Shown here: positions 24,511 to 27,189 of the stretch, piece by piece
Numbering within the stretch: position 1 is the stretch's first letter
Layout of the letters: the number at the start of each line of letters is the position of its first letter
Assembly (NCBI GenBank): GCA_964604845.1
Contig: CAZSBH010000047.1
Span: 1-31,716, forward strand
Origin: an uncultured Spirochaetaceae bacterium
Lineage (GTDB): Bacteria > Spirochaetota > Spirochaetia > SZUA-6 > DRHE01
Length of the DNA: 31,716 nt
Direction: 5' to 3'
Notes under the pieces: model-generated
The model's input: the letters and a program-made list of their open reading frames with translations, nothing else
Databases searched by the model: none
Told to the model about the DNA's origin: nothing
Position numbers and translations under genes: made by a program

Positions 24511-25802
24511 AGCACCTATTCGTTCGTACCCTGATTACAGTGGTTTCCGCTTTGGTGATACTTGTGGCGGTAATGGCCGTGGTGTCGGCGGTAGGATTCA
24601 GGCGCTCCCTGGGTGAATGGACCCAAGCCAAAACACTCCAGCTGGAGGAGGTGGCGCGGGAGATCCTTCTTCGTTTCCCCGACCCGGTGACCACCCCGGT
24701 GCCTGAAGATGTACCCCTGTTTGTCTACAATGCCGAGGGGCAGCTGATCTTCTCGAATCGGGGTGAAGGCGGGCGGAGACGGAGCAGCTCGAGCGCCGCA
24801 GACCAGGGCGTTCAAGGTGATCGGGTGGCTCTCGAGGAAGGGGGAGATCTGCTCGGATACTACCATACTGGAAAGATGCAGTTTCAGAACGATGCGGCCA
24901 ATAACCGTTTTCTCAACTCCCTTCGCCTGACGATCTGGCTAGGCCTTGCCATGGCTCTGGTAATCGCTGTTCCTTTTGCCCTGCTTTTCTCCCTCAGTCT
25001 CAGCAGGCCGGCGGTTGTACTGTCCCGCGGTCTGGACCGGATCACCCACGGGGACCTTTCCATCCGGATACCCGAGCGGGGAGCCGAGGAAATCGTGTTG
25101 ATCGCTCGTTCGGCCAATCGACTGAGCGAACAGCTGCTTCGGGAGAGAGATATCCGCCGCCAGTGGGTGCAGGACATCGCCCACGATCTGCGCACACCGA
25201 TTGCGGCCATGAGGGCTCAGTTCGAAGGCATGCGGGACGGGGTCCTGGACATATCCGGCGACCGGATCGTCAAGAGTTTAAAGGAGGTCTCCCGGATCGA
25301 GACGCTGGTCGAGGACCTGGAAGAGCTGATGCGCCTGGAATCACCGGAGATGAGCGTATCCCTCGAGGAGGTCGATGTTCCCTCAATTATCGATGAGATC
25401 GCCGAGCGTTTTGCCGCGGCTCTGAGAAAAAAGCAGATCCGTTTCGAATCTCATCACGCGATCGATCGATTTCGGGCGGATCCGGTGCTGCTCCAGCGGG
25501 CAGTTACCAACTTCTTGGCCAACGCCCTCCGTCATACTCCGCTGAAAGGAACAATCGAACTGTCGGTCGAAGCCGCCGCTGAGGGAAAAACGTCGATCCT
25601 CCTGGCGAACACGGGAGATCCGATCCCGGCGGCGGATCTGGAGAAGGTCTTCGATCGCTTGTACCGGGGAGAGTACGCCCGCAGCTCCCCCGGCTCCGGT
25701 CTGGGCCTGACCATCGCCAAACGCATCGCCGAGCTTCACGGCGGAAGCCTGAGCATCCGCAATCGCGCCGAGGGCGGAGTGGTCGTGGAGATGATTCTCT
25801 AG
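24507..25802 (+). CDS. Sensor histidine kinase (2 TM, periplasmic loop of about 125 aa, HAMP, HisKA, HATPase_c)
   Basis: H-box DIAHDLRTPIAAM, plus LANTGDPIP and GSGLGLTIAKRIAELHGG. I prefer the GTG at 24507, which overlaps the regulator's stop (GTGA). The alternative ATG is at 24456. Confidence 0.85.
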   Translation: MKHLFVRTLITVVSALVILVAVMAVVSAVGFRRSLGEWTQAKTLQLEEVAREILLRFPDPVTTPVPEDVPLFVYNAEGQLIFSNRGEGGRRRSSSSAADQGVQGDRVALEEGGDLLGYYHTGKMQFQNDAANNRFLNSLRLTIWLGLAMALVIAVPFALLFSLSLSRPAVVLSRGLDRITHGDLSIRIPERGAEEIVLIARSANRLSEQLLRERDIRRQWVQDIAHDLRTPIAAMRAQFEGMRDGVLDISGDRIVKSLKEVSRIETLVEDLEELMRLESPEMSVSLEEVDVPSIIDEIAERFAAALRKKQIRFESHHAIDRFRADPVLLQRAVTNFLANALRHTPLKGTIELSVEAAAEGKTSILLANTGDPIPAADLEKVFDRLYRGEYARSSPGSGLGLTIAKRIAELHGGSLSIRNRAEGGVVVEMIL

Positions 25803-26089
25803 CAGCAGGATTTGTCGTTCCCGCCGCAGCCGCACCCCGGCTCTCCCCCCTTGATCAAGCCATTGATAACGGCCGCCGCGCAGCCCACCCCTGCGGTGAC
25901 CCGGATCGCGTTGAAAGAACAATTCATCATGCAGGCTCCGCACTCGATACATCGATCCCGATCCACGATTCTTACGGTTTTGCCGTTTTTCCCAAAGACT
26001 TCTCGGGGACAGACCTCGAGACAGCGGCCGCATCCGGTGCAGCGCTCGGGAATGAGCTCCAGCGTGACCACGTTTGTCAGATACTTCAT
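25799..26089 (-). CDS. hgcB: HgcB, 2x[4Fe-4S] ferredoxin of the mercury-methylation pair
   Basis: MKYLTNVVTLELIPERCTGCGRCLEVCP ... CIECGACMMNC ... GVGCAAAV ... ending ...KSCC. It has two ferredoxin motifs, the extra conserved Cys and the C-terminal Cys pair. Its ATG overlaps the hgcA stop (ATGA 26089-26086). The alternative start is at 26101. Confidence 0.85.
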   Translation of the reverse strand: MKYLTNVVTLELIPERCTGCGRCLEVCPREVFGKNGKTVRIVDRDRCIECGACMMNCSFNAIRVTAGVGCAAAVINGLIKGGEPGCGCGGNDKSCC

Positions 26090-27189
26090 AACATCCCCCA
26101 TTCCTGCAGCTTGTAAAGGATTAGGAGTATCAGCGATGCAGCGGCGGCTGCGACGTACAGCGGAAGTGCGATCTTGAGCTCCTTCTTGACCCCGGAAATG
26201 CTGGTGAAGGTAGTGCTCCCCGTGAACTGCAGGGCCAGATAGGAGCTGGCCGCCGGAAAGAAAACCAGACTGAAAAGGATCAGGTGGATGTCATCCAGAG
26301 CTTCTGATCCGGCCATAAAAATGAGCGGAGCCGTCGCCAGTTCACCGAGAAGGAAACCCTTGAGGGCGAAGGAGCGGAAGGGGATCCAGGGAAGTAGGAG
26401 AGGCGTCAGGAACGTGCCTGTCAGCAGCGCAGCCAGCCCGAGGAGTGCAACGGGGAGTCCGCTCTGCACCACGCTTCGAAACAGAATCCCCTCGGGCTGA
26501 AGCCCGAACACGACAAACACCGCGGCAAGGAAAATCAAAAAGCCTTTAGCTGCGGGAACGATCTCCATGGGGGTGAGCTCCAGCCGGTCTTTGAAGCTGA
26601 ATTGGGCTCTGCGCATCCTGGCCGTTGCCTTGCAGCCCGAAGCGAGGTAGGCGGGAAGGTCGCGGGCATAAACCGGTCCGTAGGAGATCGAGAAATCGGT
26701 CTCCTGCTTGACTCGATGAGCCTGCACTCCCGGTGCCCCCAACTGGGGAAGGATGATTCGCCTGTGCTCCACGATCCCGGATAGATGAGTGCTGCCGATC
26801 CGCCGGATCAGTTCTTCCGTTCCGAAAGTCCCCTTACCCGCCGCGCACCAGACATTGATGCCCCGGGTGTCCAGCACCACGATCCAGGCATCGAATCCGG
26901 CGAGCTCCCTGCGCAGCAGATCGAAACTGAGCTTGTAGTTGGCCGTAACCAGTACGGGAGACCGGCCGTTCGGAGATCCGAGGGCGTAGATCCCCGCTTC
27001 CACCGTGTAGTTCATGCGAAAGGAATTGAACAGCCGGCACTTCAGTCGGCCCAGCCTGTCTGGGCGGGACCAGCCTGCTGTGACGACCGGAACCCTTCCC
27101 GAGGCGGTATCCACGAAGCCTGTGACCCATGCCGGGGTGTTCACGGCCCGAAGATCGAACAGCTCAACGTTTTCGCAGCATTCAGACAT
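26086..27189 (-). CDS. hgcA: HgcA, corrinoid methyltransferase of the mercury-methylation pair
   Basis: 367 aa. PVLVTANYKLSFDLLRRELAGFDAWIVVLDTRGINVWCAAGKGTFGTEEL contains the diagnostic N(V/I)WCA(A/G)GK cap-helix motif (nt 26833-26856). The C-terminal half carries about 5 TM helices. Confidence 0.92.
   Translation of the reverse strand: MSECCENVELFDLRAVNTPAWVTGFVDTASGRVPVVTAGWSRPDRLGRLKCRLFNSFRMNYTVEAGIYALGSPNGRSPVLVTANYKLSFDLLRRELAGFDAWIVVLDTRGINVWCAAGKGTFGTEELIRRIGSTHLSGIVEHRRIILPQLGAPGVQAHRVKQETDFSISYGPVYARDLPAYLASGCKATARMRRAQFSFKDRLELTPMEIVPAAKGFLIFLAAVFVVFGLQPEGILFRSVVQSGLPVALLGLAALLTGTFLTPLLLPWIPFRSFALKGFLLGELATAPLIFMAGSEALDDIHLILFSLVFFPAASSYLALQFTGSTTFTSISGVKKELKIALPLYVAAAAASLILLILYKLQEWGML

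Follow-up and report, generated by a model that had tools for sequence, protein, structure and literature searches.

The arsR-acr3-hgcA-hgcB locus

We analyzed a 31,716-nt stretch of DNA, referred to here as the window (contig CAZSBH010000047.1, assembly GCA_964604845.1), which carries an hgcA-hgcB mercury methylation gene pair on its minus strand. An earlier note on this DNA had proposed a complete pair at 25799-27189, and this was borne out: both genes are intact open reading frames (ORFs), both products pass the equivalog models of their families, and the published hallmarks are all present. The note identified the pair itself and missed the two genes upstream of it, an arsR regulator gene and an acr3 efflux gene. 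Together with these, hgcAB makes up the distal half of an apparent four-gene operon, arsR-acr3-hgcA-hgcB.

HgcA

The hgcA gene (26086-27189, minus strand) encodes a 367-aa corrinoid protein, and its coordinates match the ORF given previously to the base. The product scores 405.7 bits on the HgcA_corrinoid model NF040863, for which the curated equivalog cut-off is 275. Its cap-helix motif, NVWCAAGK, occupies residues 112-119 (nt 26833-26856, minus strand), where it had been placed before. A degenerate, back-translated pattern of the motif matches once in the window and not at all in 100 dinucleotide-preserving shuffles, and the two contexts quoted for the motif, VLVTANYKLSFDLLRRELAG and VLDTRGINVWCAAGKGTF, are both found in the translation. 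Residues N112, V113, W114, C115, A116 and A117 are invariant among 53 homologues. The motif conforms to the pattern N[V/I]WC[A/S][A/G/S]GK with a conserved Cys (Cys93 in strain ND132), which was taken as the cap-helix criterion (PMC10087281). Cys115 is the predicted equivalent of the cobalt-ligating Cys93 of P. mercurii ND132.

The segment at 26620-27093 (minus strand) is homologous to the C-terminal corrinoid domain found in corrinoid iron-sulfur protein (CFeSP) large subunits. The generic CdhD family, PF03599, is the sole Pfam match of HgcA, with 39 bits over residues 53-153. A search of PDB sequences returned the CFeSP chains 4djd_C and 2h9a_A over residues 49-182 (~32 bits, E ~6e-07); this search retrieved CFeSP only and no experimental HgcA structure. 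Cys115 aligns with a Thr of CFeSP (DTRGINVWCAAGKGTF versus DTDGLSVLTAYADGKF), and this Thr to Cys substitution is a hallmark of HgcA (PMC7305189). A member of the CFeSP family would align over its full length, carry the Thr and be soluble, none of which applies to HgcA.

An AlphaFold2 model of HgcA, built with the 53 homologues, has a mean predicted local distance difference test score of 84.6; in it, an N-terminal domain of the alpha/beta type precedes five long helices. These helices (residues 207-229, 236-264, 274-293, 301-322 and 332-363) form a predicted transmembrane domain encoded at 26101-26571 (minus strand), in agreement with the hydrophobic C-terminal half seen in a hydropathy scan and with the multi-helix membrane domain that had been expected downstream of the motif. 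The five-helix transmembrane C-terminal domain of HgcA is essential for activity in ND132. Foldseek matched the model best to 9a0b_A, an integrative model of HgcAB (E 4e-20, with 40% identity across 322 columns), and CFeSP structures rank after it, with template modeling scores of ~0.3 over ~140-150 residues.

HgcA also has an N-terminal Cys pair, Cys4-Cys5 (27175-27180), which may serve as an auxiliary thiol site in metal handling. Such a pair is present in just 28 of 53 and 37 of 83 homologues, its position ahead of the corrinoid domain varies, and we rejected it as a defining feature of HgcA. It is missing from the closest NCBI relative, and also from the orthologue in the related locus L083, which reads MPACRE.

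HgcB

The hgcB gene (25799-26089, minus strand) encodes a ferredoxin with two [4Fe-4S] motifs. Its length, earlier put at roughly 96 aa, is exactly 96 aa when counted from the ATG of the ATGA overlap with hgcA. That overlap was likewise confirmed, at 26089-26086: hgcA ends in GAA TGG GGG ATG TTA TGA, and hgcB begins with ATG AAG TAT CTG. On the HgcB_ferredoxin model NF040864, whose cut-off is 99, the product reaches 116.5 bits with the entire profile covered (positions 1-93 of 93). Searches of PDB sequences and Pfam returned generic ferredoxin domains only, the Pfam family being Fer4.

The first cluster motif, CTGCGRCLEVCP, contributes Cys17, Cys20, Cys23 and Cys27. The second, CIECGACMMNCS, contains CIECGAC and contributes Cys47, Cys50, Cys53 and Cys57, the next residue being Ser and not Pro. 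HgcB therefore has two [4Fe-4S] motifs, one of them of the form C(M/I)ECGA, and is encoded on the same contig as hgcA. The additional Cys in GVGCAAAV is Cys70, which lies 13 residues past Cys57, close to the spacing of ~12 residues described for the strictly conserved Cys73 equivalent (PMC7305189). The final two residues are Cys95-Cys96, in keeping with the one or more Cys, typically two, expected at an HgcB C-terminus, and are preceded by Cys86 and Cys88. The earlier note had listed CIECGAC, the Cys of GVGCAAAV and a C-terminal CC, and each was located at these positions. Mutagenesis in ND132 found that HgcB Cys73 and Cys94/95 matter (PMC7305189); Cys70 and Cys95/96 are their equivalents.

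Family assignment of the pair

The high-stringency definition of an hgcAB pair (PMC10087281) asks that HgcA carry one of six cap-helix motifs, that HgcB contain C(M/I)ECGA and that the two genes share a contig, and the pair falls within it. A search with HgcA and HgcB hidden Markov models, the check proposed in the earlier note, placed both products above the curated NCBI equivalog cut-offs. When compared with orthologues in the related loci L083 and L085, hgcA has a ratio of nonsynonymous to synonymous substitution rates (dN/dS) of 0.19-0.24 and hgcB one of 0.06-0.18, and both are thus under purifying selection. The same holds for all four genes of the unit (dN/dS 0.06-0.30).

It could be supposed that these genes are non-methylating paralogues, related to CFeSP or to the fused HgcAB-like proteins, or that they are decaying pseudogenes. 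The Pfam search does show the CdhD family only, and JGI gives close relatives the CFeSP name "acetyl-CoA decarbonylase/synthase complex subunit gamma". Against this, HgcA reaches 204.3 bits on the fused HgcAB-like model NF043039, half of its HgcA score and under the cut-off of 285, and 66 bits on the CFeSP/CdhE model (acetyl-CoA synthase gamma subunit), under the cut-off of 306. By these scores it does not group with either set of paralogues, an outcome that the earlier note had named as one that would overturn its claim. In addition, hgcA and hgcB are separate ORFs with a stop codon and the ATGA overlap between them, homology to CFeSP is confined to residues ~49-182 with a Thr in place of the HgcA Cys, and intact ORFs with dN/dS of 0.06-0.24 argue against pseudogenes. 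A paralogue or pseudogene origin is hardly credible in our judgment, having already been largely refuted. We therefore regard the pair as hgcAB and predict that its host is a methylmercury producer.

Identical copies of the HgcA protein occur in public data (short contigs of JGI metagenome 3300031653 and run SRR9709000; a 31.8-kb contig with a member of an NCBI/JGI/Logan cluster), and the nearest relatives have 84-90% identity. The pair is an ordinary addition to a well-known family: earlier publications already cover hgcAB itself, hosts from this phylum and the link to arsenic genes.

Many close relatives of HgcA (P0003, P0011, P0019 and others) are labelled with the gamma-subunit name or as "hypothetical protein". 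Pfam provides only the generic CdhD and Fer4 families, which explains the gamma-subunit naming by JGI. Such systematic mis-annotation conceals hgcA in metagenome catalogues.

The upstream genes and the arsR promoter

Directly upstream of hgcA, acr3 (27190-28317, minus strand) encodes a 375-aa ACR3-family arsenite efflux permease that covers the full TIGR00832 profile with 385.4 bits (cut-off 282.8). The gene is called at 375 aa in relatives as well, and its start is preceded by an AGGAGG Shine-Dalgarno element within aggaggcacaccgtATG. Upstream of acr3, arsR (28346-28723, minus strand) encodes an ArsR/SmtB metalloregulator of 125 aa when read from ATG 28723, or 119 aa when read from GTG 28705. 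The regulator scores 75.3 bits on NF033788 (cut-off 55) and matches Pfam HTH_5.

ArsR carries the motif ELCVCEL, with Cys37 and Cys39, in helix alpha-3, and also a C-terminal Cys119. All three cysteines are kept in the related loci L083, L085, L086 and L087, the ELCVCEL pair is present in five relatives, and the best PDB sequence match likewise has ELCVCD. A Cys pair on helix alpha-3 is the classical As(III) site. That of E. coli ArsR consists of Cys32, Cys34 and Cys37 (bioRxiv 10.1101/2022.10.17.512643), and the third alpha-3 Cys of this type of site is replaced by Val in the window. The locus has the components by which an ars operon is recognized, namely an ArsR/SmtB repressor with an alpha-3 Cys pair and an ACR3-family permease. 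As acr3 adjoins the regulator gene, arsenite would be the most parsimonious inducer.

The four genes are tightly packed. The gap between arsR and acr3 is 28 nt and holds the AGGAGG element, that between acr3 and hgcA is 0 nt, and hgcA shares 4 nt with hgcB. The stop codon of acr3 directly abuts the hgcA start (gtgTAGATG), and a Shine-Dalgarno-like GAGG lies five bases upstream of that start, inside acr3.

A putative sigma-70 promoter, TTGACT-17-TATAGT, was found at 28712-28740 (minus strand; 10 of 12 consensus matches), before and partly overlapping the annotated arsR start. It is the sole sigma-70-like site in 25300-31716, and the consensus scan returned no promoter-like site between arsR and hgcB. 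Across six relatives with otherwise unalignable upstream DNA, a core of 26 nt that begins at TTGACT and reaches the first bases of the -10 element hardly varies. The invariant spacer, ATATGCACATATGC, contains the direct repeat TGCATAT in two copies and the palindrome CATATG, and is a plausible candidate for an ArsR operator overlapping the promoter.

The 18 nt from ATG 28723 to GTG 28705 hold the conserved -10 element and evolve like a promoter and not like codons, and the L087 codon aligned to GTG 28705 is ATG. For these reasons arsR probably starts at 28705, and the annotated ATG at 28723 is probably mis-called. No Shine-Dalgarno element precedes either candidate start (28723 or 28705), which suggests that the arsR mRNA is leaderless or nearly so.

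Conservation of the locus

A block of MFS, GNAT, arsR, acr3, hgcA and hgcB genes, followed by a convergent kinase gene and its response regulator gene, recurs in the related loci L085, L083, L086 and L087 (GCA_964390045.1), whose HgcA proteins are 87%, 84%, 69% and 57% identical to that of the window, respectively. The conserved order extends past the regulator in these four loci, to genes for a rubrerythrin-like protein, Fer4_5, DUF4405, Pirin and DUF362 proteins. A further relative, L088 (JGI 3300017971, Ga0180438_10004787; positions 1-330), has an acr3 that has shrunk to a 50-aa in-frame remnant, in which the N-terminal MERKLSI is joined to the last ~43 residues. The 3' end of arsR is still present in L088, as are the TAGATG junction and hgcAB, a pattern that would be expected if hgcAB depends on transcription from arsR.

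We also surveyed the neighborhoods of 80 GTDB hgcA loci for relatives of the window Acr3 and ArsR within 5 kb. An Acr3 relative was found near hgcA in 14 of these loci and an ArsR relative in 27. Placement of acr3 directly upstream of hgcA was restricted to this spirochaete clade, and in seven loci of Bacillota, Bacteroidota and Fibrobacterota, acr3 lies downstream of hgcB within ~130 nt. The linkage of ars genes to hgcAB therefore occurs in at least two gene orders.

This survey bears on the idea that hgcAB only adjoins arsR-acr3, with transcription of its own, and that the adjacency is a historical accident devoid of regulatory meaning. Most of the surveyed loci do lack the neighbors (66 of 80 have no acr3, and 53 have no ArsR, within 5 kb), and internal promoters within coding sequence could escape a consensus scan. 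An accident nevertheless appears very unlikely to us in view of the contiguous TAGATG junction with its GAGG element inside acr3, the lack of a promoter-like site between arsR and hgcB in that scan, the retention of the junction in L088 despite the in-frame deletion of acr3, and a gene order that is kept down to 57% HgcA identity.

In another related locus, L003 (CAZFMD010000082.1, 6018-7172), the hgcA match ends at query residue 280, ~100 nt are left before hgcB, and the tree branch is long. The hgcA membrane domain of L003 may be affected by a frameshift or an assembly error.

Host lineage

Taxonomic classification of flanking genes, another check proposed in the earlier note, points to spirochaetes. 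The L-rhamnose isomerase gene rhaA (5597-6868), which lies ~20 kb away from the pair, encodes a protein whose closest named matches are from Spirochaetaceae (83%), Spirochaetia (75%), Spirochaetales (66%) and Spirochaeta isovalerica (63%). The best match among species representatives is L003, a metagenome-assembled genome (MAG) of Spirochaetaceae, with 75% identity in the best segment; it shares arsR, acr3, hgcB, the kinase gene and the regulator gene in the order of the window. The remaining representatives are at most 58% identical and belong mostly to Nitrospirota and Spirochaetota. In a neighbor-joining tree of HgcA, the window groups with L083, L085 and L003, and the next sister is the Spirochaetota MAG L005. 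Based on the agreement of the RhaA matches, the syntenic L003 and the HgcA tree, the host is assigned to an uncultured member of Spirochaetota (Spirochaetaceae in NCBI naming).

The lineage thus lies outside the Desulfobacterota, Firmicutes and methanogen methylators, as the earlier note had considered. The taxonomic novelty that this might have implied is small, since Spirochaetes bearing hgcAB have been reported repeatedly as putative methylators (PMC7438021, PMC7536318, PMC10087281). The whole window was scanned for Rfam families and tRNAs without a hit, which leaves no RNA marker for taxonomy. Pfam scans of 34 ORFs detected no transposase, integrase or mer genes. The GC content of the window ranges from 0.45 to 0.61, and that of the hgcAB region is like that of its neighbors. 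Given the missing mobility genes and the matching GC content, recent horizontal transfer of the locus is not supported, and the deep synteny argues against it.

Proposed arsenic-linked control of hgcAB

We consider it likely that the HgcA and HgcB encoded here form a genuine and intact pair, whose genes, as the distal half of an arsR-acr3-hgcA-hgcB unit, would be transcribed from the arsR promoter and derepressed by arsenite. Some precedent exists in the literature. Diverse MAGs have hgcAB beside acr3, arsC, arsM and arsR (McDaniel et al. 2020; PMC7438021, Fig. 6), and P. mercurii ND132 co-transcribes hgcAB with an ArsR-like gene located upstream, which controls hgcAB transcription and responds to As and S-adenosylhomocysteine (bioRxiv 10.1101/2022.10.17.512643).

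Several points count against this interpretation. The ELCVC(D/E) motif is common to CadC-type Cd/Pb sensors, and the inducer is therefore not certain. The promoter scan alone is not significant, with one site found and 1.9 expected; because the hit does not exceed chance, the weight of the promoter comes from its conservation. The taxonomic assignment draws on two genes and on MAG titles instead of a marker-gene phylogeny, and the spirochaete methylators in the papers cited here are all "putative" (PMC7438021, PMC7536318, PMC10087281). Finally, the level of the hgcAB transcript in ND132 is not predictive of the methylation rate, and an ND132 hgcAB deletion mutant shows no clear loss of As(III) resistance (bioRxiv 10.1101/2022.10.17.512643). 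These ND132 results limit what the linkage can imply.

They also bear on a proposal that grants true HgcAB orthology and assigns the pair a selected role related to arsenic or other metalloids, such as As(III) methylation or handling, with mercury methylation being incidental and of little ecological weight. Several observations fit this proposal: hgcAB is embedded in an ars operon with a zero-nt gap that is conserved across the clade, there are at least two gene orders in which ars genes accompany hgcAB, many methylators have ars genes next to it (PMC7438021), and the ND132 deletion mutant is more sensitive to As(V) (bioRxiv 10.1101/2022.10.17.512643). However, wild type and mutant are equal in As(III) sensitivity, and the authors of that study reported no significant loss of As resistance. 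L088 kept hgcAB after losing acr3, so the pair was retained without the pump. The mercury-related hallmark cysteines are all conserved. A selected metalloid role is therefore distinctly unlikely in our estimate.

We are also rather doubtful of a reading that makes hgcAB an arsenite-induced and integral part of the ars operon, in which arsenic, and not mercury, switches on methylation, a metalloid role is possible and the two gene orders reflect function. If the ars-operon reading is true, arsenic exposure would switch on the capacity to form methylmercury in a clade of spirochaetes.

Proposed mechanism

The mechanism proposed here for HgcA and HgcB is assigned from established work on the HgcAB family (PMC7305189, PMC11588087). 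The five helices would anchor HgcA in the membrane, and the CFeSP-like domain would bind the corrinoid, with Cys115 as the lower axial cobalt ligand. The two [4Fe-4S] clusters of HgcB would reduce the cofactor to Co(I), and its methylation by S-adenosylmethionine (as per Zheng et al. 2024) would be followed by methyl transfer to Hg(II). Probably HgcB Cys70 and Cys95/96 present the Hg(II), and the product would be CH3Hg+. With regard to expression, hgcAB would be transcribed from the arsR promoter, and binding of arsenite or a related soft metal(loid) at the ELCVCE site of ArsR would lift repression. The mercury-methylating capacity of this lineage would then be co-expressed with arsenite efflux.

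Surrounding genes

A convergent gene on the plus strand (24507-25802) encodes a sensor histidine kinase with HAMP, HisKA and HATPase domains (Pfam and NCBIfam), whose best matches, all sub-threshold, are to BaeS and to heavy-metal sensor kinases. It is paired with a gene for an OmpR-family response regulator (23806-24510, plus strand; Pfam Response_reg and Trans_reg_C), and the two overlap by GTGA. Both are syntenic with hgcAB in the relatives, the kinase gene in all of them, and we treat them as context genes only. The stop codons of hgcB and the kinase gene overlap in the palindrome CTAG (25799-25802), which leaves no intergenic space between the convergent units; an overlap of a few bases is also present in L083, L085, L086 and L088. 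No intrinsic terminator was found after hgcB, where the downstream RNA fold is mildly stable (z = -2.2) and lacks a T-run. The nearest terminator-like hairpin (25451-25435, minus strand) is inside the kinase gene, and such hits are no more frequent than expected.

Further from the pair, 19037-23675 encodes a rubrerythrin-like DUF2202 protein, a Fer4_5 membrane ferredoxin, a DUF4405 protein, a Pirin and a DUF362-Fer4 protein, and this neighborhood is kept in all relatives. Four consecutive ORFs of ~400 aa with signal-peptide-like N-termini occupy 14279-18936 (minus strand) and are conserved in L083 and L085; they have no Pfam match and no detectable similarity to one another. An adjoining gene (11740-14250, plus strand) encodes an 836-aa, coiled-coil-like protein that is rich in Glu, Ala and Leu and has one hydrophobic segment. 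A 154-aa ORF at 3098-3562 (minus strand) matches only the C-terminal third of the DctP family of tripartite ATP-independent periplasmic (TRAP) transporter solute-binding proteins (profile positions 174-281 of 286), and may be a truncated gene or have a mis-called start. GC content is lower (0.45-0.53) in the first 5 kb of the window.

Significance

To our knowledge, hgcAB is the only genetic marker for microbial methylmercury production. A host with an intact hgcAB pair is thereby marked as a candidate producer of a neurotoxin that bioaccumulates. Lakes, the Baltic Sea and sediments already have spirochaetes among their putative methylators, and the locus is one more example at the level of a lineage, not a new group. 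Its added value lies in a clean four-gene architecture, a conserved promoter/operator block and a natural deletion of acr3 that leaves hgcAB on arsR. As a second and clearer arrangement, it makes the published hypothesis of arsenic-linked hgcAB control testable. Another suggestion from the locus is that such organisms, when living in anoxic sediments that contain arsenic, may express hgcAB in step with arsenic and not with mercury.

Comparison with known systems

The reference proteins are reportedly the HgcA and HgcB of P. mercurii (Desulfovibrio desulfuricans) ND132 and Geobacter sulfurreducens PCA of Parks et al. 2013. Like these, the window pair consists of two genes, with NVWCAAGK and a Cys93 equivalent in a CFeSP-like domain that is followed by five transmembrane helices, and with two [4Fe-4S] motifs, a Cys73 equivalent and a C-terminal Cys pair in HgcB. 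It differs in being ~40% identical to the ND132-based chain of 9a0b_A, in its spirochaete host, in the Cys4-Cys5 pair of HgcA and in the ATGA overlap of the genes. Its HgcB has a second motif that ends in CS instead of CP, and the additional tail residues Cys86 and Cys88.

The large subunit of CFeSP (AcsC/CdhE; 4djd_C, 2h9a_A) has a homologous corrinoid domain with a cap helix over the cofactor. In this case, however, only ~130 residues align (32 bits), and CFeSP has Thr in place of the HgcA Cys. CFeSP also combines a [4Fe-4S] domain at its N-terminus with a TIM barrel but lacks a membrane domain, whereas the window HgcA has five transmembrane helices.

Fused HgcAB-like proteins (NF043039), such as that of Pyrococcus furiosus, are reported not to methylate mercury in culture. 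A cap helix, a transmembrane domain and ferredoxin motifs are common to them and to the window pair (PMC10087281). Unlike the fused proteins, the pair is encoded by two separate ORFs and scores 204 bits on their model, below the cut-off of 285.

The arsR2-hgcAB transcription unit of ND132 is said to be the one described by Goni-Urriza et al. 2020. The window resembles it in having an ArsR/SmtB-family regulator upstream of hgcAB on the same strand. ND132 ArsR2 has an atypical four-Cys site (Cys47, Cys49, Cys86 and Cys88) that lies off helix alpha-3, and no other ars gene adjoins hgcAB in that strain (bioRxiv 10.1101/2022.10.17.512643). In contrast, the regulator in the window carries the classical ELCVCE pair on helix alpha-3, and arsR and hgcA are separated by a bona fide acr3. 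In the MAGs of McDaniel et al. 2020 (PMC7438021), ars genes directly flank hgcAB, as they do here. Among the 80 GTDB loci, the clade of the window is alone in having the order arsR-acr3-hgcA-hgcB with acr3 abutting hgcA.

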